19,728 nt of DNA from NCBI RefSeq assembly GCF_003334255.1, contig NZ_QOWU01000070.1. One strand, 5' to 3'. Both the position numbers and the translations under genes were made by a program. Every line of letters starts with the position of its first letter. The first letter of the stretch is position 1. The stretch comes from Escherichia coli. GTDB lineage: Bacteria > Pseudomonadota > Gammaproteobacteria > Enterobacterales > Enterobacteriaceae. The notes beneath the pieces are model-generated. The model had not been told where the DNA came from, made no database searches, and saw nothing but the letters and a program-made list of their open reading frames with translations. Shown in pieces: positions 1-18,375 of this stretch.

Positions 1-59
1 TATTTTCCGAATGCATAATGACCTCCTCTGGAATATCCCACCAATGCTATAGTGAGTAT

Positions 60-295
60 ATAAAGGTCATACCATCTTTATGTTCTTTGGCAGCGATCAC
101 GGCGGCGAGCGTGGAGCACTGTTGTACGGGCTGATCGGCACCTGCCGTCTGAACGGCATCGATCCGGAAGCGTATCTGCGCCATATCCTGAGCGTACTGC
201 CGGAATGGCCTTCCAACCGAGTTGATGAACTCCTGCCATGGAACGTAGTACTCACCAATAAATAAGCGTCAATACGGTGCTCCGTTGACGCTTAC
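60..295 (+). mobile_element. IS66-family insertion sequence, 3'-terminal remnant
   Basis: ORF 80-265 matches the conserved C-terminus of IS66-family TnpC (FGSDHGGERGALLY, LIGTCRLNGIDPEAYLRHIL, ELLPWN). It is followed at 266-295 by an imperfect palindrome ending GACGCTTAC, the reverse complement of the GTAAGCG start typical of IS66 terminal inverted repeats. An in-frame stop at 53-55 shows only the last ~60 codons are present, so the element is truncated. Confidence 0.7.
80..265 (+). pseudogene. IS66-family transposase TnpC, C-terminal fragment
   Basis: 61-aa ORF with IS66 TnpC C-terminal motifs; no upstream coding continuity. Confidence 0.7.
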
Positions 296-544
296 GTAGT
301 TTTATGGCAATTTGAAGGATGTAATGGCGCACATCCCGCAACAAAGCTGACTAAAATAGCCAGCATAACGATTTTATTTACCCCCATCTCTTGTTCCTCA
401 ATCCATATAGTTCTCAGTAATAACTGTTTTTCTGGTACAGCACTGACCGTCCAGTTAAACTTATCTCAGTACCATAGCTCTGTCAGAGCAAAACAAATCT
501 TAACGAATACAAGTTAATAGATTATTAATATCCCCCCCTCATCC

Positions 545-3256
545 CTACATTCCAGGTGATGGTGGCGTCCACTCATTATCCTGAACTGGAGTATAAGATG
601 TGTCATTCCCCCCGGATATGCTTTTCTGTTGCCTGATATATTCGTGGTAGTACTGTTCACTACGCTGACGATGTAAATCCACATCCGGGCGGCTGATTAC
701 AAAGTGTCCATTTCCGGTTATTCCAGCTGCATTATGCCAGGCCACCATTTCCGCAAATACATCATTAAACTGTTGATATGAGCCTTCCGGTTCAAAACCC
801 ATTCCAGGCTCACGATCAAACAATACAGGAGCAATCAGATTCAGCTTATCCACCAGTTCATTTCTGTCCTGATGATGGTAGAACACCACACGGTCCCCAT
901 AATCCACACAGACTAACTCGCCATTCCTCCGATCACGAAAACGCACACTGCCATCTTTCTGCAGACGGGCTTCGAGAACGCCAGTGTCTTCATAAAGTGG
1001 AGTTCCTCCCGGTTCACAGATAATCACGCAGCGGTCGGCATTCGTTGTTCGTCGCTTGTCTTTGCGACGATCACGATAATCCCAGCCACGTAACTGTGAT
1101 ACTGCAGCTCTGTCTCCCTGTACCGCCTGTTGCTCCACCCACTGCCGGTAGGACAAAGGATACCACTTACCCTCCGCAATCAGTGACAACCGCTCTTCCT
1201 TCACACTCTCCTTCAGCCTGATCAGCGCCTGCATACGCTGCACTTCCGCAATATGGTAATGCAGCTTACGCAATTGTGGATCCCGGAACTGCACGCGGAT
1301 ATACGCCTTGCGCCGACGGCAGGCAGCATGAATTTCCCGTAACCGTTCTCCGTAACGTAAGTCGGGTTTACGCCAGTGCTCCTTCCATGCAAGATAACGC
1401 GCGCGCAAATCTTCCCGCGCAGCTGCACGGGCTTCACGGCGTTCACGACGCAGTACAGGATCGCGCCGGAAGCCGGGCTCCACTTCATCGCTGGCAGCAA
1501 GTTCCGGATTGTAGCGACATTCAGGCTTCACCCGTTCAAATATATCTGCACCTGCGATCTCAAATGGCCCTGCCTGCGGCTCAGCCCTGGATAATGTCAA
1601 ATCCGGGTGGATACTGCTGGCCTTCACTGGTGTCAGCTCATGATTAAACGCATCCACAATCACAAGACCATGATGCTGTTTCTGCAACATAAGCCCTTTA
1701 CGCGCAAACATCTCATGGCACGCCTGCCAGCTGAAATTCCCGCCCGCGATCATATCTTCAATCAACGACTCACACTGAACAGTCGTGTACCCCCACAGAC
1801 TTTCCTTATCAGAAAACAGTTCGCGCTTTATTGCTCCCTGTGGACCTGTCCCCATCCGCATACGATACCATTCGTAATCACTGACAGCCCGGGTACCGGT
1901 ACTGTGCCCCCGGAATCGTTCTCCGGGGACGACCTGGGTAAAAATATCCTTCGGTACAGGCTGCCATCCGCCTTCCTGATCCTGCATGTAATCCAGCGTC
2001 ATTAACGGCCACACACTGTCTGCACGTACTGGTGTCTGTTGTTTATCAAATCCATCATGCAGTACCAGATGCCCGTGCTGGATCCCCATCCATAATCCAG
2101 CCTTTGCCAGAGTTCTGTGCACATCCAGGCAACTTTCCAGCTCACCATTTCTCGCCATTTCCGGTAAGCGTTCGGCAAAATGACGGCAGGCGTACTGTTT
2201 CAGACTCTCCGTTTCTGCCACTTTTTCCGGCCGGATATCAACGTTTATCGCTTCCGGATCATAACGACCGGGTGTCCCCACCTGACTGAAAATATCTGTC
2301 GGTACAGGCTGATATTCTCCCAGTTTCCGCCCCAGTCTTTCAGCCGTCCATGACGGGCCGAACGAACTGAGCACAACACCTTCCCGCGATCTGTCCCAGC
2401 CATCCTTCACCACCAGTTCTCCCTCCTGCATCGTGATATACAGACCATCACGGGCCAGCCGTTTATGCAAAGACAACCAGTCCTGGGCGGGTTCTTCACG
2501 CAGCCCGGCAATCGACATCTGCGCAATATATTCCCTGAAGGTCTGCTTTTTCCCGCGTCGCCAGGCATTACGGCGCTCACGTACCAGCGCTGTTTTACGC
2601 ACAATACGGTTGCCCGGTGCATGCACAAAACACCCGTTATCCGGTGCAAATCCGTGCTTAAGTTCAAGTTCACGGCATGCACGACTGAGTTTTTCCTTGC
2701 TCCACGGAAGGCAATTGATATAGCCGGTTTCAGGATGAACACGATTCACTGCAACATGTACATGCAGGTTATCGGTGTCTGTATGAACGGCAGCTACATA
2801 CTGATGTTTTGAAAGTTCAAGGGATTTCAGTGTGTGACGTACGCAGTCAAAAAGCTGCTCAGGACGCGGGCTTTCATGCGCAGGCCAGGAAAGAATGTAG
2901 TGAAAAACAGGGTCTGTATCATCTTTGGAAAAATGAGCAAGGTCTGCTGCTTTCTGCATTTCTTCAGCCGCAGATTCAAGAGACAAACAGTTATGAAAGC
3001 AGGTCACACCATAGAAATTCACCCACTGACTGCCGTCTTCCATTACATCAATCAGGGATACAAATTTTTCGTTACGCAGGCGTGTGGCATAGTCAACAAG
3101 CCGTCTGAAGCGGTTACGGTGCGGGACCTCACCTTTCATTTCCGGGTCTGGTTTGAGTTCATCATCCTGCACATCATCCCGCACAGACGTGTACGCAATC
3201 AGGTCTTCAAAGGAAGACCTTCCGTCACGTCTTTTGGGCGGAATGATAGCATTCAT
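545..3256 (-). CDS. nikB: MOBP-family conjugative relaxase (NikB-like), 903 aa
   Basis: Relaxase histidine motif HTDTDNLHVHVAVNRVHPETG (HxDxxxxHxH type). Size and N-terminus (MNAIIPPKRRDGRSSFEDL) fit my memory of IncI1 R64 NikB (~900 aa). Lies directly downstream of a nikA-like gene and oriT. Confidence 0.88.
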   Translation of the reverse strand: MNAIIPPKRRDGRSSFEDLIAYTSVRDDVQDDELKPDPEMKGEVPHRNRFRRLVDYATRLRNEKFVSLIDVMEDGSQWVNFYGVTCFHNCLSLESAAEEMQKAADLAHFSKDDTDPVFHYILSWPAHESPRPEQLFDCVRHTLKSLELSKHQYVAAVHTDTDNLHVHVAVNRVHPETGYINCLPWSKEKLSRACRELELKHGFAPDNGCFVHAPGNRIVRKTALVRERRNAWRRGKKQTFREYIAQMSIAGLREEPAQDWLSLHKRLARDGLYITMQEGELVVKDGWDRSREGVVLSSFGPSWTAERLGRKLGEYQPVPTDIFSQVGTPGRYDPEAINVDIRPEKVAETESLKQYACRHFAERLPEMARNGELESCLDVHRTLAKAGLWMGIQHGHLVLHDGFDKQQTPVRADSVWPLMTLDYMQDQEGGWQPVPKDIFTQVVPGERFRGHSTGTRAVSDYEWYRMRMGTGPQGAIKRELFSDKESLWGYTTVQCESLIEDMIAGGNFSWQACHEMFARKGLMLQKQHHGLVIVDAFNHELTPVKASSIHPDLTLSRAEPQAGPFEIAGADIFERVKPECRYNPELAASDEVEPGFRRDPVLRRERREARAAAREDLRARYLAWKEHWRKPDLRYGERLREIHAACRRRKAYIRVQFRDPQLRKLHYHIAEVQRMQALIRLKESVKEERLSLIAEGKWYPLSYRQWVEQQAVQGDRAAVSQLRGWDYRDRRKDKRRTTNADRCVIICEPGGTPLYEDTGVLEARLQKDGSVRFRDRRNGELVCVDYGDRVVFYHHQDRNELVDKLNLIAPVLFDREPGMGFEPEGSYQQFNDVFAEMVAWHNAAGITGNGHFVISRPDVDLHRQRSEQYYHEYIRQQKSISGGNDTSYTPVQDNEWTPPSPGM

Positions 3257-3267
3257 CAGCGACTGTC

Positions 3268-3600
3268 TCAGCGTCCCATTAAGTCTCTTCGCAGAGTGTT
3301 TGCAAGTTCTGTAATGGCAACGAGGACCTCTGCATACTCTTTATCTCCCGTGCGTTTTCCTTCCACAAACAGATGCTTCTGCAGGTGACCAAGACGCATC
3401 AACTCTTTCAAAAAATCTTCATCAATGCGGGCATTTATCTGTTTTCCCAGCACAGTTTTTCTTATCAGAGTTGAAACTGTCAGTCCGTTTTTTTCTGCCT
3501 TTTCTTTAACAATCTCAGCCTCTTCTGGTGAAAAACGAACAGCAATGAGGACATTCTTTTGCCGTTTCTCACTGCCATTTCGGTTTTTCTTCTCACTCAT
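3268..3600 (-). CDS. nikA: Relaxosome accessory protein NikA (ribbon-helix-helix oriT-binding), 110 aa
   Basis: 110-aa product starting MSEKKNRNGSEKRQ with SD AAGGAG 6 nt upstream of the ATG at 3598-3600; the longer 139-aa ORF in the track would overlap the oriT repeat. Small basic protein immediately upstream of the relaxase, the R64 nikA-nikB arrangement. Confidence 0.85.
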   Translation of the reverse strand: MSEKKNRNGSEKRQKNVLIAVRFSPEEAEIVKEKAEKNGLTVSTLIRKTVLGKQINARIDEDFLKELMRLGHLQKHLFVEGKRTGDKEYAEVLVAITELANTLRRDLMGR

Positions 3601-3641
3601 GGTCTGCTCCTTACCAGGGTGTCGGGGCAAAGCCCTGACCA

Positions 3642-3700
3642 GGTGGTAATCGTATAGCCGTGCGTGCGCGGTTATACGATTACACATCCTGTCCCGTTTT
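3642..3700 (+). other. oriT: oriT: inverted repeat (arms 3646-3656 / 3673-3683) followed by nick-core-like ACATCCTG TCCCG
   Basis: 11-bp inverted repeat GTAATCGTATA / TATACGATTAC, then 8 bp later ATCCTG (3686-3691) resembling the MOBP nic core (RP4 ATCCTG|C); sits between nikA and the leading region. Nick position 3691|3692 is inferred by analogy only. Confidence 0.6.
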
Positions 3701-3832
3701 TCAGGCCATTATAGCCTGTTATTTTTGTGCATCATAGTCTTATGCAGACGGCAGAGGCAGGGCGCAGCCCTGCCAGGAGGCAGTTTTTGGTGATAAAATC
3801 AGGCTTCAACATGAAACGGAGAGAAAGTGCCA

Positions 3833-4168
3833 ATGGCTTCTAAAAAATTTTACTCAGATGATGACATCCAGCTGGCAAAAGCTGCTTTATCGGAATTGCC
3901 GGACCTCACCGCTCAACGGAAAACATTGCGTGATTTTCTTGATGCCATTCGTGATGACATCATTGTCCTGGTAAGGACAAAGGGTTATACACTGACAGAT
4001 GTTCGTGACACGCTCAAAAATGCAGGGTATGAAGTAGGAGAGAAAGCACTTCGTGACATTATTCGGGAAGCAGAATCGAAAAAACCATCCCGCCGTTCTT
4101 CCTCTAAAACAGCACCTAAAAAGACAGATTCAGGCAGGAAAGATGGCATCGATATGAACAACAATTGA
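3833..4168 (+). CDS. Hypothetical small basic protein (possible DNA-binding), 111 aa
   Basis: ORF with ATG at 3833 preceded by GGAGAGAAA; C-terminal lysine/arginine/serine-rich tail; stop directly followed by the perfect palindrome GATGTGAC ga GTCACATC (4167-4185). Function not recognised. Confidence 0.6.
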   Translation: MASKKFYSDDDIQLAKAALSELPDLTAQRKTLRDFLDAIRDDIIVLVRTKGYTLTDVRDTLKNAGYEVGEKALRDIIREAESKKPSRRSSSKTAPKKTDSGRKDGIDMNNN

Positions 4169-4212
4169 TGTGACGATGTCACATCGTGTTCTGAGATTAT
4201 GATGATTACAGA

Positions 4213-4249
4213 AAAAAAAGCCCCGGCATAAATACCAGGGCTTTTCTGT
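4213..4249 (-). terminator. Rho-independent terminator for the minus-strand leading-region transcript
   Basis: On the minus strand: stem AAAGCCCTGG / CCGGGGCTTT with one mismatch, followed by a run of 8 T; located just after the stop of the 4254-5102 gene. Confidence 0.7.
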
Positions 4250-4253
4250 TTGA

Positions 4254-5102
4254 TCAGACTCGTGGCGGCAATGCACCAGGATAATGACGTGCAATAATAT
4301 CATTCAGTTTTTCAACAAGGTCAGGACACTTAAAGACAATATGTACGGTCCCTTTCTGGTAGCCACGCACCGTAAAATATTCCCCTTCAAACAACTCACC
4401 GATATTGTCGCCGTTCCCGAGATATTCACCATACTGCGCCCCGATGCTGTTCCTGAAGTCAGGAACGTTGCGTCCCTCCAGCAGATAAAACGGACGTACC
4501 AGGTCATCCAGTGCCTCCCGTCCGCTGCAGTCCAGCGTCACACGCCCGTTACTCCAGCGGTACAGCAGGTTTTCAATAATGATTTTCTTGCCCAGACGGC
4601 AGGGATTATTGGTTCTGTAATCCCATGACAATTTCCGGTAGACATCAATCAGTCCCTGTTCAAATGTCTGCATCTTGCTGGCATTCAGATGGCGAAAAGT
4701 TGCCAGTACATTGTCCAGGGTGATTTCAGGACAGGTGTCGCTCATCAGCTGGCTGTTCCACTCATCACGCTGGCATGAACTCATGAAGGTGTACATCCCC
4801 GTATCCGCCATCAGGCGGTCCCAGATTTTACGGTCGGCAAGACGGGTGATATTCTTTTTTGCTTCTTCCGGTTTATCCATGCATCGAACGGAGTCAGTCA
4901 CGCAGTCTTCAAACCCGTAGAGAAAAATGTCACCAGAAGCATCGAGCAGAATCCTGCGTGCTGTCGCCAGGCATTCCATCGCCTGCATGAACAGTGCAAT
5001 ACCTTCGTTACGCTGCGCGATAATGCGGTCGATGGCCACAGACGGAATAATATCTGTCGTGCCGGCAGTATTCAGGTCAGCAGTGGGTAAAGTCTGATTC
5101 AT
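4254..5102 (-). CDS. Hypothetical protein, first gene of the leading region (possibly DUF4942-like), 282 aa
   Basis: Long ORF; ATG at 5100-5102 with SD GAGGAG 8 nt upstream (the track start is a GTG one codon earlier). No methyltransferase, HExxH or nuclease motif seen by eye. The family assignment is from memory and weak. Confidence 0.75.
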   Translation of the reverse strand: MNQTLPTADLNTAGTTDIIPSVAIDRIIAQRNEGIALFMQAMECLATARRILLDASGDIFLYGFEDCVTDSVRCMDKPEEAKKNITRLADRKIWDRLMADTGMYTFMSSCQRDEWNSQLMSDTCPEITLDNVLATFRHLNASKMQTFEQGLIDVYRKLSWDYRTNNPCRLGKKIIIENLLYRWSNGRVTLDCSGREALDDLVRPFYLLEGRNVPDFRNSIGAQYGEYLGNGDNIGELFEGEYFTVRGYQKGTVHIVFKCPDLVEKLNDIIARHYPGALPPRV

Positions 5103-5152
5103 CACATTGTCTCCTCATCGTCACGACTGCCGGGTCAGCCAGGTCATTTCCC

Positions 5153-5463
5153 GGAGGAGCGAAGCTCCTTCTGCCGTCCGGGTCTTCGGGGATTTCCCCG
5201 CAGTGGACCTTTCCGACGGGGGACGCTCACCACGTCACGGGGCAGTTGTCCGGGGGCAGACGCAAAAGTTTTTGACGCCTGCGGCAAAAAGTTTTGTGGC
5301 TGGTACATCTCTCCCCTGGACGACTGAAACGGGATGTGGTCGTGTATGTACCCCCGGAAAGTCCGTCTGCGGAGAACAGGCCGCAGTGCGGCGGCAGACA
5401 GGCAGAGACAGCTGCGCCATCAGGCGCAGTGGCATTACACACCGTCAGGTGTGCAGGGAGCGC
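5153..5463 (+). promoter_or_regulatory. Structured GC-rich element resembling a single-stranded-DNA promoter (Frpo/ssi type), copy 1
   Basis: No credible coding despite many overlapping ORFs; dense hairpins (GGAGC gaa GCTCC, CGGGGAttTCCCCG, CTGCGCC atca GGCGCAG, CACACC gtca GGTGTG); contains TTGACG inside a hairpin; paralogous to 8317-8626. Confidence 0.6.
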
Positions 5464-5578
5464 CGCATCCGGCGCGACTGAAGAAAAACGACGGCACAAC
5501 AATGGCATGTGGTGGTCACTGGCACACCACTCCCGCACAGGTGAAAACAGAGAAAACCGCACGACATCTGCAATTAAA

Positions 5579-5667
5579 AAAAGTGAAATTTCTTCACTTT
5601 TTCACACTTATTTTTCGCGCTGATTTGGTGATTATGGTGATAAAATAAAGTGAAGTTTTTTCACTTT
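5579..5667 (+). promoter_or_regulatory. Twin operator-like palindromes and promoter upstream of the HTH gene
   Basis: Two copies of AAAGTGAA-N5/6-TTCACTTT (5579-5600 and 5647-5667) flanking an AT-rich -10-like stretch, ending 15 bp before the ATG at 5682. Confidence 0.55.
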
Positions 5668-5681
5668 TTCAAAGGTGTTTT

Positions 5682-5933
5682 ATGACCGGCTGGGAACTGC
5701 GAATCTGGCGAAAAAGCATGCTCTGGTCACGCGAAAAAGCGGCCAGAGAATTTGGCGTGACGCAGAGAACATGGCACGCCTGGGAAAATGCGGAACAGGT
5801 GGATGTCACCGTCTGGAGGACCACCCAGGCACTTTCAGTCCGTGACCTGCTGCCTCACATGCAGGGGATGCGTAAGGCAGATATCATCAGGCGACTGGAA
5901 AATGAACTGGGGGAAACGGCAGAGGATGTGTGA
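5682..5933 (+). CDS. Small helix-turn-helix (XRE-like) DNA-binding protein, 83 aa
   Basis: ATG with AAAGGTG SD; N-terminal segment ELRIWRKSMLWSREKAAREFGVTQRTWHAWEN fits an XRE-type HTH; preceded by the twin palindromes. Confidence 0.65.
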   Translation: MTGWELRIWRKSMLWSREKAAREFGVTQRTWHAWENAEQVDVTVWRTTQALSVRDLLPHMQGMRKADIIRRLENELGETAEDV

Positions 5934-5963
5934 GCGTGATTCACAGCCTGGCTGAATGCCAGG

Positions 5964-6122
5964 CTACTGCTCATCAGGAAACAGCTTTTTCAGTTCTTCA
6001 CCGGAAAGTCCCGTGACCTCCTGAATCCGTTCCGGCGGCCAGCCCATATTCCAAAGCCGGCAGGCTATTTCCCGCGCCACTTCAAGTGCGCCTTTTTGAA
6101 TAAGACGTTCTGCAATCGTCAT
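5964..6122 (-). CDS. Free-standing RpnS-like small protein (paralog of the Rpn C-terminal domain), 52 aa
   Basis: MTIAERLIQKGALEVAREIACRLWNMGWPPERIQEVTGLSGEELKKLF parallels the C-terminal tail of the adjacent Rpn protein; own ATG at 6120-6122 with SD CAGGAG; separated from rpn by a terminator hairpin. Confidence 0.6.
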   Translation of the reverse strand: MTIAERLIQKGALEVAREIACRLWNMGWPPERIQEVTGLSGEELKKLFPDEQ

Positions 6123-6146
6123 GCTGTTTGCTCTGCTCCTGCTGAC

Positions 6147-6172
6147 AAAAAAGCCCGGGATTTTGCCGGGCT
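6147..6172 (-). terminator. Rho-independent terminator immediately after the rpn stop codon
   Basis: Minus strand: stem AGCCCGG / CCGGGCT (6152-6172) followed by TTTTT (6147-6151). Confidence 0.6.
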
Positions 6173-6184
6173 TTGTGGTTCTCA

Positions 6185-7147
6185 TCAGTAAGTGATTTTC
6201 TTCAGTTCGTCATCGGAAAGTCCGGTAGCCTGCTTAATCTGCTCCGGCGTCATCCCCATTTTCTGAAGCTGGCACGCAATAGCCAGGGCTTTTTCAAGCG
6301 CTCCTTCCATGCGTCCTTCCATGCGTCCTTCCATGCGTCCTTCCATCCTGCCTTCCTGGCGACCTTTTTGCTCAAGACGTTCTGCGATAGTCATCAGTTT
6401 ATCCTCATGCTGCGGCAGACGCTCAGCCAGCGCCCGCATAAATTCCGGTGATACAGAGTCCCCTGCGTTAACGATGTAATGAATCAGAACACGCACCTGC
6501 TCGTCTGAAATTTCCACCATGACCTGCGGGAGTTTGTCCAGCAGCTCCATCATGTCACGATGGCGGATATGCTTCATCAGCAGCGTCAGTGCGGCCATCC
6601 GGCGATGGTTCATGATTTCATTGTCATCAACGACAGTGATATCAACCAGCGGAAACGGCTTTGTGTATATTTTAGCCGCAAGTGCCGGATTCTCAAAACA
6701 GTCCAGCCAGTTCATGCTGTACGGGTACGGGCTGCGCTCACCGTGATAGAACAGCACCGGAATCACCAGTGGCAACGTTTTGTGCTGCTCCAGATGTCTC
6801 TGCATCGCCGCCACACTGTAGCGTAACATGCGAAAAGGCATGTACAGATTTTCTGTGCTCTGGTGCTCGATGAGCGTATAAACATAGCCGTCTTCACCCC
6901 CGGTGGTTTTCACGCTCCAGAGGATATCGCTGGCGTACTGATGCAGGTCCGGCTCTACAAAGGTGGCGGGTTCCAGCTTCAGCGTGGACAGGTCGCACAA
7001 CTGCCGGTACTCCGCCGGAAGATGCAGTTCCAGAAAATCTCTGGCGACGTCGGGATTCGCCAGGAACGACCGGAACGCGGCATCATGCGGCGTGGGCGTT
7101 GTGGTGGTTTTCTTCTTACTCACTTTCCCTCCATGAGTTATTATCAC
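6185..7147 (-). CDS. Rpn-family (YhgA-like, PD-(D/E)XK) recombination-promoting nuclease with internal RpnS-like start
   Basis: N-terminus TPHDAAFRSFLANPDVARDFLELHLPAEYRQLCDLSTLKLE and the core ASDILWSV ... YVYTLIEHQS closely parallel E. coli RpnA as I recall it. C-terminal repeat linker and tail are present; an internal ATG at 6392-6394 with SD GAGGA would give a 69-aa C-terminal product. True start may be the GTG at 7121-7123 (SD GGAGGG). Confidence 0.8.
   Translation of the reverse strand: MIITHGGKVSKKKTTTTPTPHDAAFRSFLANPDVARDFLELHLPAEYRQLCDLSTLKLEPATFVEPDLHQYASDILWSVKTTGGEDGYVYTLIEHQSTENLYMPFRMLRYSVAAMQRHLEQHKTLPLVIPVLFYHGERSPYPYSMNWLDCFENPALAAKIYTKPFPLVDITVVDDNEIMNHRRMAALTLLMKHIRHRDMMELLDKLPQVMVEISDEQVRVLIHYIVNAGDSVSPEFMRALAERLPQHEDKLMTIAERLEQKGRQEGRMEGRMEGRMEGRMEGALEKALAIACQLQKMGMTPEQIKQATGLSDDELKKITY
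6302..6349 (-). repeat. In-frame 12-bp tandem repeat (3 perfect + 1 variant unit) encoding (EGRM)n in the Rpn linker
   Basis: Plus-strand unit TCCTTCCATGCG repeated head-to-tail; translates on the minus strand to RMEG repeats (QEGRMEGRMEGRMEGRMEG). Confidence 0.9.
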
Positions 7148-7204
7148 CGGAATTATACGCCCGTGCGGTACGCACCTGCCACGGGCAGAAAGAAGGGAAC
7201 AGAT

Positions 7205-7534
7205 TTACAGTCGTGTATACAGCCCGGTATCCCGGGTAAAAAGCCACTGCAGCTGATCGCAATAAATCCCCTCGTGCTCCGATATCTGCGCTATCCGGGA
7301 ACCCTGTTTGCTGTAAAACGTCACCGTGTAATCATCGGCAAACGTTAATTTGATCCGGACAATATTAATATTATTTTTCGCAAAATATGACGGTAACTGA
7401 AAGCATAAACCGCATTCACCATTATCATCAAAATAAGCCAGATTTTTAGCGCCGGTCATAACAACAAATCGCTGGCTCCCCAGCTGTCCGAGAATTGTTT
7501 GAGCGACATGTTCAGCATAACTCATATTCTTCAT
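7205..7534 (-). CDS. Hypothetical protein, 109 aa
   Basis: ORF in an AT-rich block behind structured element copy 2; weak SD; no recognisable motif. Confidence 0.6.
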   Translation of the reverse strand: MKNMSYAEHVAQTILGQLGSQRFVVMTGAKNLAYFDDNGECGLCFQLPSYFAKNNINIVRIKLTFADDYTVTFYSKQGSRIAQISEHEGIYCDQLQWLFTRDTGLYTRL

Positions 7535-7600
7535 TCTAATATCCTGACGAGAGATATGCCGCAGGAGACACGACTACCTGCGACACTGATAATTGGGGAC

Positions 7601-7918
7601 TCAAGTTCTGTTACGCACAACTGCAAAGAGATATTTTTTCTGGCTTATAACTTTGCATTTTATTAAACGGGCTATTTCCCTGTAGTCTTTATTAAGAGGA
7701 ATATGAATCATGTCCCCGTTCAGTTCATTAAAAACGCACCCTTTTATATATAACGTCTCATTCATGATAAAACCATACATTGAAAAATGCTGATTTTCAT
7801 ACTCTTTACTGATTAAGTGAAAATATCCCTCCAGCAGTTCCTGCGGGGGATGTGGATCAATCATCCAGTTATCACCAATATATGAACATACTTCTGTTAT
7901 CGTTGTCTGAAATGTCAT
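7601..7918 (-). CDS. Hypothetical protein, 105 aa
   Basis: ORF with SD GGGGG 5 nt upstream of the ATG; strongly AT-rich relative to neighbours; no recognisable motif. Confidence 0.65.
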   Translation of the reverse strand: MTFQTTITEVCSYIGDNWMIDPHPPQELLEGYFHLISKEYENQHFSMYGFIMNETLYIKGCVFNELNGDMIHIPLNKDYREIARLIKCKVISQKKYLFAVVRNRT

Positions 7919-7975
7919 GTTACCCCCTGAAGTAAAAACTTATGATGTGAAATGGGGCGTTTCCGCCCCCTGGTA

Positions 7976-8110
7976 TCACATGGCGTAGCCTCTGAGGTGG
8001 TCCAGCCACCAACAGAACTCGTGCCATTCGTCGCCTTTCATTGGCGGAATGCGTGTGGGTTGTCCTTTGACAACCGCATCAGCAAGGGTTACGATTTGTC
8101 TGAGTGACAT
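7976..8110 (-). CDS. Hypothetical small protein, 44 aa (MSLRQIVTLADAVVKGQPTRIPPMKGDEWHEFCWWLDHLRGYAM)
   Basis: ATG at 8108-8110 preceded by AAGGAT; the longer 75-aa ORF in the track would read through the upstream GC hairpin motif. First gene downstream of structured element copy 2. Confidence 0.5.
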   Translation of the reverse strand: MSLRQIVTLADAVVKGQPTRIPPMKGDEWHEFCWWLDHLRGYAM

Positions 8111-8316
8111 AATCAATATCCTTACAAAGGTTGTTGATATCCGTGCAAAGGGGTGTTCCCGCCCCCCTGGCACACCCACTAACCTCCTTTTCCTTCCCGG
8201 CATTCCCTCACGCTGTGCGTGATTTACATCGTTCTCACCTCCTTCACTGGGTTGTTTCTGTTCGCTAAAAAATGGTCAGGTTGTTAAAGAGCGGCACGGT
8301 ATGTTCAGGCATCTTC

Positions 8317-8626
8317 ACAGGAGCGAAGCTCCTTCTGCCGTCCACTTCTTCGGGGTTTCTCCCGCTGTGGACCTTTCCGATGGGGGCCCGTTTACCGCCT
8401 CACGGGACAGCTGTCCGGGGGCGGACGCAAAATTTTTAGCCGGGTTCATGGCTAAAAATTTTGTGGCCGGTGCATCTCACCCTGGACAGATGGAACGGGA
8501 GGGGGTTACGTCTGCCCCCCGGAAAGTCCACAGCGGGAAACAGGCCGCAGGGGTGGCGGCAGGAGGGAGGACTGCTGCGCCATCAGGCGCAGTTTCCTCA
8601 CACACCGTCAGGTGTGCAGGGAGCGC
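8317..8626 (+). promoter_or_regulatory. Structured GC-rich element resembling a single-stranded-DNA promoter (Frpo/ssi type), copy 2
   Basis: Shares blocks with copy 1 (GGAGCGAAGCTCCTTCTGCCGTCC, GTGGACCTTTCCGA, GTCCGGGGGC-GACGCAAAA, CCCGGAAAGTCC, CTGCGCCATCAGGCGCAGT, ACACACCGTCAGGTGTGCAGGGAGCGC). Contains a perfect 14-bp hairpin CAAAATTTTTAGCC / GGCTAAAAATTTTG (8428-8463). Confidence 0.6.
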
Positions 8627-9015
8627 AGGTCACGGCGCGACAGGGGCGGCGCGACCGGAACGGTCGCTGCAAGCCGGGTTTTCACGCATCGGACCGTAGC
8701 GGCAGCCCGAAACCGCGCCAGCGGGTTCGGCGGAGACTGGCGGGTGCGCCAGCAGCTGCCCGTCGGAGTCGGGCCTGACGACCGGATGCCGCCAGGCAGC
8801 CGGGAGCCGAAGTGGGCGCAATAAAAGACAGCCAGAAACGGTGACAGTGTCACGGAATATCACTCCTGTTCCCTGCATACAGCCATACACTACCTTCTGA
8901 CCGGAAAGCCGGGCCGGCAGCGCCGCAGGCGCTGCACCCCGCGTTTCCGGCAGGCGTCAGCCTGCCTGGGGTTTTCGCGCGGGCTGACAGGCGGCCTCCA
9001 CCGCCTGCCCCTGTA

Positions 9016-9207
9016 TCACCTGTTTCTGCTGCCCTGAAGGATGTAGTGACCGCCCAGGAAAACCGCCTGCTGATTCGCCACAAAATCGCAGATTTCATCA
9101 ACAATCTGCGCGGTGGTGAGCGGTTTCTGCCCCATTTCACGACGCCGCGCATTAATCACGGCCCTGTAATTACGCAGAATTTCGCGGGTTTCTGTGCTGA
9201 TATTCAT
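9016..9207 (-). CDS. Hypothetical small protein, 63 aa, translationally coupled to the upstream gene
   Basis: ATG overlaps the stop of the 9204-9626 gene (ATGA). Confidence 0.6.
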   Translation of the reverse strand: MNISTETREILRNYRAVINARRREMGQKPLTTAQIVDEICDFVANQQAVFLGGHYILQGSRNR

Positions 9208-9626
9208 GACATCGTCTCCCCGTCCAGCGCCTGTAACACAACGTCCATTGCTTCGCGTTCCTCCCTGACGAATGCGTCACCGTCGCCCCCGTTCTCACTC
9301 CCGACGGCATACAGGCGCTTCATTTCACTGCCTGCCAGCGCCATCACTTTTTCCAGCATCACCGCCGGGACTGTCACATGACGGCTGGCGCGCTTTTCTT
9401 CCATCAGTTCACGAACAACGTCGTGAACAACGCTGACATCCGCACCATGCTCAAAGGCATCGTCCAGTCGCTGCATGACGGTTTCCAGCTCATCGTCTGA
9501 CAGGTTCCAGTCCTGGGCTATGTGACGCACATCCCCACGGGTCAGCACCACGGCAAAAACGCATTCACTGTCCGGCACGTCTGTATCCAGTACATCGCGG
9601 ATGATTTCTTTAACAGTACAGTACAT
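9204..9626 (-). CDS. Acidic hypothetical protein, 140 aa (possibly DUF1380-like, a family often next to ArdB/KlcA genes)
   Basis: ATG with SD AAGGAGACG; acidic composition; family name from memory only. Confidence 0.65.
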   Translation of the reverse strand: MYCTVKEIIRDVLDTDVPDSECVFAVVLTRGDVRHIAQDWNLSDDELETVMQRLDDAFEHGADVSVVHDVVRELMEEKRASRHVTVPAVMLEKVMALAGSEMKRLYAVGSENGGDGDAFVREEREAMDVVLQALDGETMS

Positions 9627-9672
9627 GTTCTCGTCTCCTTTACAGGGGCGGCATTGCCGCCCCGTCCGTTAA

Positions 9673-10098
9673 TCAGTCAAGTGCAGCGTAAATCGCGTTG
9701 CATTCGGGGTGAAATTCGATGTGGCTCCACAACTGCGCATCGCGCATCCTGTACAGGTGTGTCAACCCTGCATCCCCGCTGTCGTGGTACAGCCACAACT
9801 GGCGGTTAATCACAAGGGAAGTCAAAATGATGCCTGCGGCATCAGCACTCACGGTACGGTCAAACCAGTTTTCACCGTTGACCAGATGAAAACGGTCGCC
9901 ATCCGGCATCATGTAACCGCCACCGTCCGGCAGGCGGATGAAGTGCCAGAATCCGCCTTCATATTCCGGCATCATTTTTTTCGCCAGCGCGTATACAGAC
10001 GCTTCGGCATACAGAAAATCCAGGCCAAACAGGTAAGGCAGAAAAGACAGACGGTCGCACTCTTCAACGTTCAGAGTGACAGGTTTCGCATACTGCAT
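9673..10098 (-). CDS. ArdB/KlcA-family antirestriction-like protein, 141 aa
   Basis: Start MQYAKPVTL with SD GGAGG 6 nt upstream (the track ORF begins earlier at 10179). Motifs FLPYLFG, EGGFWHFIRLPDGGGYMMPDGD and SADAAGIILT match my recollection of the KlcA/ArdB/YfjX family. Confidence 0.7.
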   Translation of the reverse strand: MQYAKPVTLNVEECDRLSFLPYLFGLDFLYAEASVYALAKKMMPEYEGGFWHFIRLPDGGGYMMPDGDRFHLVNGENWFDRTVSADAAGIILTSLVINRQLWLYHDSGDAGLTHLYRMRDAQLWSHIEFHPECNAIYAALD

Positions 10099-10140
10099 GG
10101 GATTTCCTCCGTTGTTCACATATTCCGCGACACCGGGCGG

Positions 10141-10364
10141 TGCCGTGCCTCCATCTTTGCCGGGCCTGCAGGGTTGCAAGGGCGCAAGGGAAGCCGCAGC
10201 CTGACGCGCACGGCTGACGGGAGTTGGAGGGTGAGACCGCGAAATCTGAGCGGGTGAACGACCGGAAAATCACGGCAGACGGGAAGGAGGGACCGGGTGA
10301 CCGCAGCGGTTCACCTTACCTTGCAACCCGCCCGCAGAAGCCCGGCTACGATGGAGGCACGGCA
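10141..10364 (+). promoter_or_regulatory. Long imperfect hairpin (about 225 bp) upstream of the klcA-like operon; possible third ssDNA promoter/ssi element
   Basis: Outer arms TGCCGTGCCTCCATC (10141-10155) and GATGGAGGCACGGCA (10350-10364) are exact reverse complements; inner arms GCCGGGC...GGTTGCAAGG / CCTTGCAACC...GCCCGGC also pair; nested palindromes CGGGTGAACGACCGG and GGTGACCGCAGCGGTTCACC. Confidence 0.5.
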
Positions 10365-10511
10365 CAGCCCGCACACGACGCTGAGGCCACATAACTGAAA
10401 ACCCACAAGGCCATGCCCCGCATGGCCGGGTAAAGCGGAGCCTGCGGCGACATCCTTTTGCTCTTTCCGGGGACCGGCTGGAAAAGGCGGAGATTTTCCC
10501 CGCCAGCGTCA

Positions 10512-10835
10512 TCATTTCCGGATTTTCGCCAGTGCATCCGCCATGCTGCGGATTTCAGTCCGGGCTTCCAGGACCACCTCCCGCAGAATATCCCGGTCAA
10601 ACCAGCGACGGGACGGTTCATCAGGTATACGCAGCACATCGCAGGCCAGCCCACTGGACAGGATATGCTCCACACACTCACTGACCAGATACATTTCCAC
10701 CGACGAAAAACGAGCGCCACGGTTCAGAATGGCATCGAGCACCACGGGCAGATTTTCGTCATCTTCATCAAGCCAGCAGGGGTAATCGCTTTCCTTCACA
10801 ACCAGACGAAAGCGGCGCGTCTGGCGGGTCAGCAA
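10512..10835 (-). CDS. Hypothetical acidic protein, up to 107 aa (start uncertain)
   Basis: ORF with TTG start in the track and no clear SD; contains the acidic stretch [12 protein letters not shown]; real start could be internal. Confidence 0.45.
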
Positions 10836-11114
10836 CGTCTGACCGGTGGTGGTCAGCGCCGCCCGGATACGCGGGCATCTTCTGCCACTTGGTAACAGAT
10901 GCTTCGTACTGCATTGCGCACTGCATCAAGAACTGCCCTGATTTCGTCTTCGGTCAGCCATTCTCCGGCATACGGGAAAAACACCTGTGTTCCGTCTGCC
11001 GGAAGTACCGGCAGCGACTGCCACTGACTGCCGGACAGTACCAGTTCCGCCCCGGTTCCGGTCAGTTTCTGAATGGCGGAGGCCAGGAGCGGCGGCAGTA
11101 CGCCGCCGTGACGG

Positions 11115-11756
11115 TTGATAAGTAACGTCCGGAAAAACTTCAGCGTCATTCTTGAGCGTACGGTACGCGAACTCAACGGCGAGTCCTGCATATCCCTGGA
11201 AGAAGCACCACCGGCAAAACAACAGATTGTCTGTAGTCGCAGTTTTGGTGAACGAATCACAGACAAAGATGCCATGCACCAGGCTGTTGTTCAGTATGCA
11301 GAGCGGGCCGCAGAGAAACTACGTGGGGAGCGTCAGTATTGCCGGCAGGTGACGACATTTGTACGGACATCCCCCTTTGCAGTAAAAGAACCCTGTTACA
11401 GCAATGCCGCTGTGGAAAAGCTTTCATTGCCCACACAGGACAGCCGGGACATTATTGCCGCCGCATGCAGAGCCTTAAACCATGTCTGGCGTGAAGGGTA
11501 CCGCTATATGAAGGCAGGAGTCATGCTGGCTGATTTCACTCCATCGGGTATAGCGCAGCCGGGATTATTTGATGAAATCCAGCCCCGTAAAAACAGTGAA
11601 AAGTTAATGAAAACACTCGATGAACTGAACCAGTCGGGAAAAGGGAAAGTGTGGTTTGCGGGGCGAGGAACCGCCCCTGAATGGCAAATGAAACAGGAAA
11701 TGCTATCGCCTTCGTATACAACACAATGGACTGAGATCCCCATTGCTTCATTCTGA
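11115..11756 (+). pseudogene. impB: impB/umuC/mucB-family error-prone polymerase gene, 3' half only
   Basis: [13 protein letters not shown] ... [11 protein letters not shown] ... TTFVRTSPFA ... PTQDSRDIIAAA ... YMKAGVMLADF ... LFDE ... WQMKQEMLSPSYTT aligns to the C-terminal ~210 residues of MucB/UmuC as I recall them. An in-frame TGA at 11109-11111 and non-homologous sequence upstream show the N-terminal half, and any impA/impC, are missing. Confidence 0.85.
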
Positions 11757-13357: not shown

Positions 13358-14002
13358 ATGATTACTGTAGTTGGTGGGAACAAAGGTGGTTCAGGGAAAA
13401 CTACCATTGCATCAAACCTGGCTATTGCTCTCGCAAATAAAGGAAGGGAAGTCTGCCTGTTAAACGGAGATCTACAACGAACAGCCGCAAAACATCATGC
13501 GGAACGAGAAGCTGCAGGACTGTTACCAGCAATAACCCTTGTTGAGAAATTTGATAATCTGACACAAACACTACAGGCTCTGAATGAAAAGTTCGATGAT
13601 GTAATAGTGGATGTCGCAGGAAGAAACTCAAAGGAATTCATAACGAGTGGAGTTGTCGCACATCAAATAATTGCGCCACTACAGTGTTCTCAACCAGATC
13701 TGGATACTCTTACAGAACTAGAACAACAGATAGACGCAATGCGTAACCTTAACCCGGAACTTAAGGTTTATTGTTTACAAAGTATGGCAACAACCAATCC
13801 GGTTTTGAGGGGAAATGAGAGAAAAGAATTCCTTGAATATCTTGAAGAATTCCCAACAATTCAAGTCCTGGATTCAGTTATTTGTTTCAGAAAAGTCTAT
13901 CGCGATTGCATGAGCAACGGCACCGGTGTAGTAGAAACGAACAATACAGCAGCCAAAGCAGAAATTGAACATTTAATGAATGAGGTATTTGGCCCATGGT
14001 GA
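13358..14002 (+). CDS. ParA-family (small, ParF-like) partition ATPase, 214 aa
   Basis: Deviant Walker A VVGGNKGGSGKTT near the N-terminus; SD GAGG upstream of the ATG. Confidence 0.85.
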   Translation: MITVVGGNKGGSGKTTIASNLAIALANKGREVCLLNGDLQRTAAKHHAEREAAGLLPAITLVEKFDNLTQTLQALNEKFDDVIVDVAGRNSKEFITSGVVAHQIIAPLQCSQPDLDTLTELEQQIDAMRNLNPELKVYCLQSMATTNPVLRGNERKEFLEYLEEFPTIQVLDSVICFRKVYRDCMSNGTGVVETNNTAAKAEIEHLMNEVFGPW

Positions 14003-14271
14003 AAAAACCCAGCCAGCAAGCATTAAACAGAGCTGCAGTTACGGTAGAACAAGCAGAGGCTCTGGCTCAGCGCCTTGCGGATAAACCATACGGCGCGCCG
14101 GAAAAAACCGAACCAGAAAAACAATGTCGGACGACAATCTCTCTTGGTGAAAGCATGCTTGTCACAATAGAAGATCTGGCATTGAGGAATAAACGCAATG
14201 GTAAAGATCCAAAAAATGTAAGTGCCATCGTCAGAGTAGCCCTTGAGCAATACTTAAAAACACTAACGTAA
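13996..14271 (+). CDS. Small partner protein of ParA (possible ParG/RHH-type centromere-binding protein), 91 aa
   Basis: Start overlaps the parA stop (ATGGTGA), indicating translational coupling; small, charged. Function inferred from position. Confidence 0.5.
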   Translation: MVKKPSQQALNRAAVTVEQAEALAQRLADKPYGAPEKTEPEKQCRTTISLGESMLVTIEDLALRNKRNGKDPKNVSAIVRVALEQYLKTLT

Positions 14272-14340
14272 TAATCAAGAAGTTATTACTTATGAAATCA
14301 CACTTGTGAATTCATACTGTTTAAGCACCCTTGCATACAA

Positions 14341-14371
14341 GAGATCACATATTGCAGTGGTCTCTTTTATT
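14341..14371 (+). terminator. Rho-independent terminator after the parA operon
   Basis: Stem GAGATCAC / GTGGTCTC (one G-U pair), 8-nt loop, followed by TTTTATT. Confidence 0.6.
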
Positions 14372-14401
14372 ACAGAATAATTCATAATTATGATTTGTGA
14401 A

Positions 14402-15184
14402 TTATGCGTGTCTGTTTTTCAGCATTGTGACCGCATCGGACTCAGGCATCAAAAACTGCACCCGGTGCCGTGCAGCCACATCCAGTGCAAACACCTTCGT
14501 GTAGACCTCCGTTGAGCTGATGGACTTATGCCCCATCAGGCTCTGCAGGACCTTCAGCGGTATACCGGCATACAGCATGTGCATCGCATAGGAATGGCGG
14601 AACGTATGTGGCGTGACCGGGACAGAGAACGTCACACCATCAGCGGCAGCGGCGGCAACCGCCTCCCCAATCCAGGTCCTGACCGTTCTGTCAGTCACTT
14701 CCCAGATCCGCGCTTTCTCTGTCCTGCCTGTTCGTTTATTACGCCGTTCCATGGGGATTTTCAGTGTTGCCACCATCGTCTGCAGCTGGCTGACGTACCA
14801 GGAGTCGGAGAGCGGAACCAGCCGGTGAGTCTGCTGACCGGCGGGCATTCTTCCTGCCGTCCTGGCGGCTTTTTCTGTCCGCTGCTTCAGAGTGGCCAGT
14901 TGCACAAACGGATACGGGGGCGCAAGCGAAAAATCCCCCCGCGTCAGCGCCAGTGCTTCATTAATGCGCGCACCGGTGTTCCACAGTGTGGCCAGCAGCA
15001 TCTTGCGGCGCAGATCCGGGACGTAATGGAGCAGGGCGCTCACTTCAGGGGCCAGCAGGTATTTTGGCAGTTCATCATGAACCATCGACATCTGGCGGAG
15101 TGCCAGCGCTGCCGGATAATCGATGGCAACAGGAAGCTGAGCAGCATCCCGGGCATGGTGGATCGGTGCCGGCAGGTGCTGCAT
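14402..15184 (-). CDS. Tyrosine site-specific recombinase (XerD/ResD-like), 260 aa
   Basis: C-terminal catalytic signature HTFRHSYAMHMLYAGIPLKVLQSLMGHKSISSTEVYTKV and upstream TLWNTGARINEAL (R...H..R..Y). The ATG at 15182-15184 sits 1 nt after the upstream gene stop; the track ORF begins earlier at 15337. Confidence 0.88.
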   Translation of the reverse strand: MQHLPAPIHHARDAAQLPVAIDYPAALALRQMSMVHDELPKYLLAPEVSALLHYVPDLRRKMLLATLWNTGARINEALALTRGDFSLAPPYPFVQLATLKQRTEKAARTAGRMPAGQQTHRLVPLSDSWYVSQLQTMVATLKIPMERRNKRTGRTEKARIWEVTDRTVRTWIGEAVAAAAADGVTFSVPVTPHTFRHSYAMHMLYAGIPLKVLQSLMGHKSISSTEVYTKVFALDVAARHRVQFLMPESDAVTMLKNRHA

Positions 15185-17497: not shown

Positions 17498-17845
17498 ATG
17501 AAACTGGATATATCTGTAAAGTATTTACTGAAGAGCCTGATACCAAGCCTCATTATTCTTACAGTTTTTTATCTGGGATGGAAAGATAACCAGGAAAATG
17601 CAAGAATGTTTTATGCGTTCATCGGATGCATTATCAGTGCCATTACTTTTCCTTTTTCAATGAGGATAATACAGAAAATGGTAATAAGGTTTACAGGGAA
17701 AGAATTCTGGCAAAAAGACTTCTTTACAAATCCAGTTGGCGGAAGCTTAACTGCTATATTTGAATTATTCTGTTTCGTTATATCAGTTCCTGTGGTTGCC
17801 ATTTACTTAATTTTTATATTCTGCAAAGCCCTTTCAGGAAAATGA
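17498..17845 (+). CDS. Colicin immunity protein of the small E1/Ia/Ib type, 115 aa (likely colicin Ib-type)
   Basis: Strong SD AAAGGAG; small hydrophobic protein with three predicted membrane segments; convergent with and 18 bp from the end of a colicin pore-domain ORF, the classical pore-former colicin-immunity arrangement. Confidence 0.65.
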   Translation: MKLDISVKYLLKSLIPSLIILTVFYLGWKDNQENARMFYAFIGCIISAITFPFSMRIIQKMVIRFTGKEFWQKDFFTNPVGGSLTAIFELFCFVISVPVVAIYLIFIFCKALSGK

Positions 17846-17862
17846 AAGGGCATCATTATGTG

Positions 17863-18375
17863 TCAGATACCAATAAGTTTATTGACCTGCTCAATAAACT
17901 TATCATTAACAAGCGCACTCACAGCAGCCATAATAATTGCAAAACCCAGAATACCTACAGGGGTTCCCAGCATGACGGAAAACGTCCATGCTGTAACTGC
18001 TGAAGCAGCTCTTCCTGCTGCCAGTGATTCAAGTTTTACAAAAAATGGACGCCAGTTGTCCGTTTTTACAGCCTTTTGTAACTCCACAGCAACATCATAA
18101 CGATCAATAACTTTTCCGGTAAAACCAAATGCCTTACTGAACAGCTTAAAATTCTCCGCCATATGGACCTGATTAATAGCTTCCAGGGCTTTAGAAATGG
18201 CCATGCGATCTTGTATGCTATATTTCTTGTTCAGATTATTACGGAATTTATCAAAAGCGTTCAGTGCATCATCCACACTCTTAATTTGTTTCCCTTGAGA
18301 TACAGAAGCCAGCTCCTTAGAAAGTTCGGATGCTTGTTTACCCGAGTAGGCAGCCTGGCGGCTGCGGCTTGTCAT
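17863..18375 (-). pseudogene. Pore-forming colicin, C-terminal channel domain only (170 aa); N-terminal translocation and receptor domains absent
   Basis: TDNWRPFFVKLESLAAGRAASAVTAWTFSVMLGTPVGILGFAIIMAAVSALVNDKFIEQVNKLIGI matches the hydrophobic helical hairpin and C-terminal LIGI ending of channel-forming colicins as I recall them. An in-frame TAA three codons upstream of the first ATG shows the rest of the gene is missing. Confidence 0.7.

Follow-up and report, generated by a model that had tools for sequence, protein, structure and literature searches.

In IncI1 plasmids such as ColIb-P9, the leading-region genes ardA, psiB and ssb have been shown experimentally to enter the recipient, and to be expressed, first. 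In R64, the order from the origin of transfer (oriT) is a 111-aa open reading frame (ORF), DUF4942, a helix-turn-helix (HTH) protein, Rpn, two small ORFs, ArdA, a 198-aa ORF, PsiA, PsiB, ParB, DUF905 and SSB, and the series continues with a 63-aa ORF, DUF1380, an antirestriction protein, a 257-aa ORF and, further along, a methylase, DUF1281, impCAB and stbB/parM. The IncI1 plasmid pESBL has six early operons with a hairpin before each, start sites at the hairpins mapped by 5′ rapid amplification of cDNA ends, and early induction of up to ~500-fold (Wen et al. 2025, PMC12672017). The hairpins termed ssi1-3/Frpo form class 1 in that study, those 5′ of klcA and ardA class 2 and that 5′ of M.EcoGIX class 3, with the highest transcription reported for class 1. 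The IncZ plasmid pO111-CRL115 is without a 9.7 kb leading fragment and retains a repeat whose sequence is that of parts of R1 and R3 in pO26-CRL125; its conjugation efficiency was unchanged despite this absence, and the fragment was read as a possibly mobile insertion (Venturini et al. 2013, PMC3817090). In IncK2 plasmids, the impC-nikA region has been noted to vary and Ssb to be lost (Seiffert et al. 2017). Here we describe a 19,728-nt stretch of Escherichia coli DNA (contig NZ_QOWU01000070.1; the window, meaning this whole stretch), in which the segment at 3.6–11.1 kb is very probably an IncK2/Z leading region, orthologous to those of R64, ColIb-P9 and pESBL and in the same gene order, that lost its ardA...ssb block by recombination between two Frpo repeats.

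The whole window matches E. coli plasmids typed IncK2/Z (I-complex) with a MOBP relaxase. Two records, NZ_CP060058.1 and NZ_CP060062.1, are 100% identical to it and differ solely by three insertion sequence (IS) insertions which the window does not have, while parts of the window are common to thousands of IncI/IncF plasmids at 90–99% identity. Against R64 it is collinear over 635-7132 and 8313-11129, the oriT-nikAB module is the same as in R64, ColIb-P9 and pESBL, and the class-1 and class-2 hairpins of those plasmids occupy the same positions. We also compared the window with pA16EC0070-1 (CP088867.1; pA16), an H7-type IncK2/Z plasmid (NZ_CP104518.1; H7) and pECOED (NC_011754.1). The genes and gene remnants of the region are as follows, with coordinates in the window:

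3833..4168, + strand: conserved 111-aa ORF nearest oriT; annotated in R64, H7, pECOED and pA16, no Pfam/NCBIfam family
4212..4251, no strand assigned: probable bidirectional intrinsic terminator (A8-GCCCCGG…CCAGGGC-T4CTGTTT) in the gap between the 111-aa ORF and ydiA; tentative, read from the sequence and absent from the consensus-scan list
4254..5102, − strand: ydiA (DUF4942), 282 aa, first gene templated by the transferred strand; Pfam DUF4942 E = 1.3e-49, 96% identity to the R64 orthologue
5682..5933, + strand: 83-aa HTH regulator; WP_000148285.1, the same protein in R64 and all relatives
5964..6185, − strand: 73-aa ORF like the Rpn C-terminus (partial duplication); NCBIfam RpnA C-terminal match E = 1.6e-4, direct repeat D2
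6185..7123, − strand: rpn, recombination-promoting nuclease family, 312 aa; TIGR01784 180 bits (cutoff 52), 79% identity to the R64 orthologue
7133..8312, − strand: low-GC 1.2 kb cassette with 109-, 105- and 44-aa ORFs, in place of R64's 88- and 144-aa genes; no match in R64 or H7
7205..7534, − strand: 109-aa 'YahA'-like ORF (ORF list/PGAP)
7601..7918, − strand: 105-aa ORF (ORF list/PGAP)
7976..8110, − strand: 44-aa ORF (ORF list/PGAP)
8630..8878, − strand: doubtful ORF inside a class-1 hairpin; RefSeq 'hypothetical protein'
9016..9207, − strand: 63-aa conserved leading-region ORF; annotated in R64 and all relatives
9204..9626, − strand: DUF1380 protein, 140 aa; 94% identity to the R64 orthologue
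9673..10098, − strand: ardB/klcA-family antirestriction gene, 141 aa; Pfam Antirestrict PF03230 E = 3.6e-26, 94% identity to R64 ArdB
10512..11128, − strand: pseudogene, what is left of the 257-aa leading-region gene after a frameshift and 5′ truncation; tblastn aligns only residues 40-256, as two segments in different frames, PGAP 'frameshifted; incomplete'
11129..11756, + strand: impB (Y-family polymerase) C-terminal remnant; 99% DNA identity to R64 impB, PGAP partial pseudogenes

All recognisable genes have orthologues in R64, arranged in the same order (YdiA 96%, Rpn 79%, DUF1380 94%, ArdB/KlcA 94%). The families are also prevalent: in Supplementary Table 1 of Samuel et al. 2024, DUF4942/YdiA ranks 24 among leading-region families (2,171 members, median position 1 from oriT, strand 1), RpnB 18 (position 4), KlcA 9 and DUF1380 7, all of them oriented for transcription from the transferred strand (T-strand). 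Judged by family membership, YdiA, Rpn, DUF1380 and ArdB/KlcA are standard leading-region families. Relative to IncI1, the window is without ardA, the 198-aa ORF, psiA, psiB, parB, DUF905 and ssb, and without the methylase (M.EcoGIX-type), DUF1281 and impCA; a different small-ORF cassette of 1.2 kb lies between rpn and its class-1 repeat, and three of the six early operons are kept.

The absence of ArdA, PsiB and SSB, noted in an earlier reading of the DNA made without database searches (the sequence-only reading), was confirmed by tblastn of R64 ArdA, PsiB, PsiA, SSB, ParB and DUF905 against the window, which returned nothing (best E = 0.16; by query, ArdA 1.7, PsiB 2.0, PsiA 0.16 and SSB 0.52). 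The place from which they are missing is a single class-1 repeat, one of three long stem-loops:

5150..5481, + strand: class-1 (Frpo/ssi-type) hairpin 5′ of ydiA; 80-82% identity to three R64 copies, DNA fold −100.2 kcal/mol, z = −8.0
8313..8812, + strand: chimeric class-1 (Frpo/ssi) hairpin, putative scar of the ardA…ssb deletion with the crossover at 8317-8386; DNA fold −116.7 kcal/mol, z = −12.0
10105..10457, + strand: class-2 hairpin (klcA/ardA type) 5′ of ardB/klcA; inverted repeat I2 91% complementary, fold z = −4.8

The closest relative with the full block is pA16EC0070-1, which is IncK2/Z and typed conjugative, with MPF_I mating-pore genes. It has the window's flanks and its 109/105-aa cassette, the latter at 96% DNA identity, but between two class-1 repeats it still carries ardA, psiA, parB, DUF905 and ssb. 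Its order is cassette, class-1 repeat, ArdA, 198-aa ORF, PsiA, an unannotated gap at the position of R64 psiB, ParB, DUF905, SSB and a second class-1 repeat, after which come the 63-aa ORF, DUF1380 and the antirestriction gene. We aligned the window repeat with both pA16EC0070-1 copies and scored it at the sites where the copies differ. It follows the ardA-side copy to ~8349 and the ssb-side copy from 8386 on, with a mixed zone at 8317-8386. Homologous recombination between two direct class-1 repeats flanking ardA-psiA-psiB-parB-DUF905-ssb would delete ~6.3 kb and leave one hybrid repeat, and because the window repeat is a clean chimera of the two pA16 copies we attribute the loss to such a Frpo×Frpo event.

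In R64 the class-1 repeat has three copies (5′ of ydiA, 3′ of ardA and 5′ of ssb), to which 8313-8812 shows 90-96% identity, the highest value (96%) being to the copy 5′ of ssb. Set against R64 copies the repeat had seemed almost wholly 'ssb-type', with its left edge unexplained; the chimera seen against pA16EC0070-1 replaces this assignment.

The repeat of the H7-type plasmid, which represents the more common IncK2/Z type, is also chimeric, its crossover lying at about window position 8527, about 150-200 nt further in, and its junction was found in 38 PLSDB records. Since the crossovers differ, the losses in H7 and in the window are separate events. Like the window, both H7 and pECOED are without ardA...ssb, and both are typed conjugative. 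H7 differs in keeping the methylase-DUF1281-impCAB segment, whereas pECOED (13917-14681) runs from the 63-aa ORF straight to umuD, a further deletion in which ardB/klcA has also been lost; pECOED has an even more minimal natural leading region. As far as the published description allows the comparison, pO111-CRL115 resembles the window in being without ardA/psiAB/ssb and in having one hybrid Frpo repeat made of both flanking repeats, the fragment there being 9.7 kb, bounded by R1 and R3, and the loss in the window ~6.3 kb (PMC3817090). The locus is a clean example of the dispensability of the classical ardA-psiB-ssb module, which recombination between the single-strand promoters themselves has removed on at least two independent occasions.

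The direction in which the region would enter a recipient follows from the relaxosome genes and oriT beside it:

545..3256, − strand: nikB, MOBP relaxase, 903 aa, intact; NCBIfam TraI/MobA(P) relaxase 409 bits (cutoff 250), collinear with R64 nikB
3268..3600, − strand: nikA, ribbon-helix-helix relaxosome accessory protein, 110 aa; NCBIfam MobA 111.6 bits (cutoff 80), weaker TraJ match, mobA/NikA in the annotation of relatives
3646..3692, + strand: oriT core with inverted repeat 3646-3663/3666-3683 and nick region ACATCCTG/T (the slash marks the putative nick, 3691/3692); repeat search and direct reading

The inverted repeat arms are 18 nt long and 89% complementary, and are followed on the + strand by the 8 nt ACATCCTG and T3692. 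R64 and two IncK2/Z relatives have the block ACATCCTG/TCCCG unchanged, and ACATCCTGTCCCG with the ~130 nt after it does not vary among R64, an IncK2/Z relative and pECOED, while the inverted-repeat arms vary between plasmids. A relaxase beside a ribbon-helix-helix protein, and a 17-18 bp inverted repeat followed by 8 nt and a nick in an ATCCTG/Y region, are the marks of an I-complex MOBP oriT. The same order of inverted repeat, 8 nt and nick was reportedly described for R64/RP4-type oriT by Furuya and Komano in 1991. In R64, ardA, psiB and ssb come after ydiA and are separated from nikAB by oriT, on the side that the leading region occupies in the window. Both class-1 hairpins are ~17 kcal/mol stabler on the + than on the − strand (−100.2 vs −83.0 and −116.7 vs −99.5 kcal/mol). 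The + strand is taken as the transferred strand because three independent lines agree, namely the orientation of the nick motif and repeat, the collinearity with IncI1 and the strand asymmetry of the hairpins. They uphold the proposal of the sequence-only reading that the + strand is nicked near 3691/3692 and enters 5′-first with rising coordinates, and by homology a nick at 3691/3692 is a sound inference. NikA/NikB would nick the + strand at ACATCCTG/T, and this strand would then go into the recipient 5′-first, coordinates increasing.

All three hairpins of the window are long stem-loops on the + strand, 5′ of − strand operons. The class-1 assignment rests on homology to the ColIb-P9/R64 ssi repeats and on a long imperfect stem-loop on the transferred strand 5′ of co-oriented genes; the class-2 assignment rests on a hairpin 5′ of klcA with a similar copy 5′ of ardA, 10105-10457 being 88.6% identical to the copy 5′ of R64 ardA and 95.8% to that of pA16EC0070-1. 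Once single-stranded, the three imperfect hairpins would re-create double-stranded promoters from which host RNA polymerase would transcribe leftwards. By homology, class 1 at 5150-5481 would drive ydiA, the chimeric class 1 at 8313-8812 the small-ORF cassette and probably rpn, and class 2 at 10105-10457 ardB/klcA, DUF1380 and the 63-aa ORF. We infer from the homology with pESBL that the three act as single-strand promoters, three of the six pESBL units having been kept.

Gene orientation fits this polarity. About nine of the 11 credible genes are on the − strand, the + strand exceptions being the 111-aa ORF and the HTH gene. Since genes of an operon share an orientation in any case, so small a count means little by itself and gains meaning only together with the three hairpin promoters. 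The sequence-only reading had counted eleven of twelve genes on the − strand with the HTH gene as the sole exception; nearly all are indeed on that strand, but the 111-aa ORF is a second + strand gene, 8630-8878 is doubtful, and 10512-10835 is a fragment of the frameshifted, 5′-truncated pseudogene 10512-11128 (tblastn, PGAP), for which 'gene' is an unsupported label. Its statement that 4254-5102 is the first gene to enter and unknown likewise stands in part: ydiA is the first gene for which the transferred strand is the template, and it has a family, DUF4942, but the 111-aa ORF at 3833-4168 is physically first. Since the sense of that ORF is that of the transferred strand, it could be expressed only after complementary-strand synthesis. 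It is divergent from nikA across oriT, and its name in some records, 'molybdopterin-guanine dinucleotide biosynthesis protein MobC', looks like a mislabel.

Two ORFs that RefSeq calls 'hypothetical proteins', 8630-8878 (−) and 5346-5648 (+), sit within the GC-rich single-strand promoter hairpins. Both class-1 copies hold the same reading frames because the DNA itself is repeated, and the two ORFs are probably not genes.

A Pfam search brought out the ArdB/KlcA gene at 9673-10098, which the sequence-only reading, having looked for ArdA, had missed; the PADLOC defence models had no matches among ten − strand products. The ArdB/KlcA assignment is also made by PDB matches to 2kmg (KlcA, E = 3e-18) and 2wj9 (E = 6e-9). 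The title of Goryanin et al. 2018 points to antirestriction assays of R64 ArdB. NCBIfam and Pfam searches of the 111-, 109- and 105-aa ORFs gave nothing significant, and an Rfam scan of the whole window gave no family. In direct repeat D2, 5986-6094 duplicates 6198-6306 in part (73% identity) and yields the separate 73-aa ORF. Five tandem 12-nt repeats in rpn (6290-6366, − strand) encode a (GRME)n tract near the C-terminus of Rpn.

The locus is a standard I-complex leading region that lost its ardA-psiAB-parB-ssb block and then decayed further. The further decay is seen at one more junction:

11128..11129, no strand assigned: junction of a ~4.6 kb deletion in which DUF1380, methylase, DUF1281, impC, impA and the 5′ end of impB were lost; the R64 alignment jumps 8559 -> 13143

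Here the 257-aa gene runs into the C-terminal part of impB, the microhomology at the joint being no more than 2-3 bp, and the junction is present in four E. coli records. A second deletion, illegitimate in kind, would have removed this methylase-to-impB segment. In the closest relatives, IS elements lie at ~window 8163/8164 (IS421), at ~7636 within the 105-aa ORF (ISCro1) and at the end of the impB remnant, ~11.6-11.75 kb (ISEc12); those of NZ_CP060058.1 without a counterpart in the window are IS421, ISEc12 and an IS3-family element. For IS elements, this part of the leading region is a hot spot of insertion.

Several observations weigh against the reading of the region as a working set of early operons. 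By eye there are no convincing −35/−10 hexamers in the class-1 stems, with weak candidates only (e.g., TGGACA-17 nt-TTACGT), and a consensus promoter/terminator scan found 6 promoters against 5.4 expected, a scan which is uninformative for hairpin promoters. The fully matching NZ_CP060058.1 is without tra/pil/trb genes, remnants such as excA aside, and is mobilisable at best; entry of the fully matching plasmids into a recipient would need a helper, and the region may survive in them as an inactive relic. IS elements of close relatives separate the 8313-8812 promoter from its downstream ORFs or interrupt those ORFs, IS421 making the split in NZ_CP060058.1, and because they lie between promoter and ORFs, or within the ORFs, they argue against strong selection on this operon.

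These points bear most directly on the proposal that the locus is a decaying relic, its mating-pore genes lost in the fully matching records and its leading genes disused and eroded, which we regard as unlikely though a serious possibility. Two deletions, two pseudogenes, the missing tra/pil/trb genes of NZ_CP060058.1 and the insertion of IS421, ISCro1 and ISEc12 in the closest relatives speak for it. Yet nikA, nikB, oriT, ydiA, rpn, DUF1380 and ardB/klcA are intact, so helper mobilisation is still possible, and the loss of ardA…ssb also occurs in plasmids typed conjugative (H7-type, pECOED). Erosion is, moreover, compatible with a standard leading region that lost its block by Frpo×Frpo recombination, and is no true alternative to it. 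The sequence-only reading saw an atypical cargo; taken further, this would make the locus a truly atypical leading region in which the unknown − strand genes are novel anti-defence cargo replacing ArdA, PsiB and SSB. The absence of these three, the lack of a known function for YdiA and for the 109-aa and 105-aa proteins, and the rarity of the 1.2 kb cassette speak for it. But the genes and their order match those of R64, the families rank among the most frequent in leading regions, a canonical ArdB/KlcA gene is present, the chimeric repeat marks a simple, secondary ~6.3 kb deletion, and pA16EC0070-1 carries the cassette together with ardA, psiA, parB and ssb, hence the cassette is no substitute for them. 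The comparison with pA16EC0070-1 and the repeat chimera have largely refuted novel cargo, which we consider very improbable.

Two further alternatives concern how, and whether, the incoming strand is read. Ordinary co-orientation of operons, with conventional double-stranded DNA promoters acting after complementary-strand synthesis and the hairpins being mere repeats or priming sites, could draw on the small ~9/11 count, which carries little weight alone, and on the role of Frpo/ssi as primer-RNA sites for complementary-strand synthesis (PMC12672017). Homologues in pESBL and F, however, have mapped start sites and an early induction that lasts longer in a uvrD recipient (PMC12672017), the hairpin structure is strand-asymmetric in favour of the + strand, and no above-chance sigma-70 promoters lie 5′ of the − strand operons; co-orientation as the whole explanation is thus improbable. 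A nick on the − strand, with the nikAB side entering first and the − strand genes then not templated by the incoming strand, is scarcely credible: the position of the nick rests here on analogy, but the ATCCTG/Y motif 8 nt 3′ of the inverted repeat sits on the + strand in an R64/RP4-like manner, ardA, psiB and ssb (first in ColIb-P9) are on this side of oriT in R64, and the hairpins are stabler on the + strand.

The genes directly behind the two class-1 promoters deserve separate mention. YdiA matched nothing in PDB by sequence, and its AlphaFold2 model (predicted local distance difference test score 87) had no PDB fold match. Some databases label it a DNA methyltransferase, a label which is unsupported: no methyltransferase Pfam/NCBIfam profile matched, and the phrog_6263 'DNA methyltransferase' profile aligned only over positions 26-286 of 548. 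From its position behind a class-1 promoter YdiA is presumably an early-expressed establishment factor. The 1.2 kb cassette has substantial matches in only ~9 PLSDB plasmids. Its 109-aa protein matches phrog_9437 (unknown function) and a small plasmid/phage family, and this 'YahA'-like family occurs in arrays of small co-oriented plasmid genes, a context that gives no functional clue.

Beyond the leading region, trbC is absent 3′ of nikB (window 1-545), and ISEc45 (IS110-family) abuts this end in NZ_CP060058.1. The cargo of that plasmid includes ireA, a phosphoethanolamine transferase and a fatty-acid/polyketide-like cluster. At window 17498-18375, annotation places a colicin E1-family immunity gene next to a 170-aa colicin-like pore-forming ORF, apparently a truncated colicin remnant.

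The polarity of genes towards T-strand transcription, the Frpo/ssi promoters, and IncZ/IncK2 plasmids without the block but with a hybrid Frpo repeat are all already known (PMC3817090, PMC5350095, PMC11541004, PMC12672017). The locus therefore has little weight as a discovery and serves as a base-level example of module dispensability. As a more speculative and rather doubtful suggestion, YdiA and the 109-, 105- and 44-aa ORFs, each directly 3′ of a class-1 promoter, could be uncharacterised early establishment or anti-defence factors, and Frpo repeats may be general recombination joints. If so, leading-region cassettes would be repeatedly lost, and possibly gained, at Frpo joints, two independent crossovers having been seen, and such plasmids would represent natural 'minimal' leading regions in which the contribution of YdiA and the small ORFs is measurable without ArdA, PsiB and SSB. 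Natural deletion variants of this kind are possible backgrounds for testing early genes.

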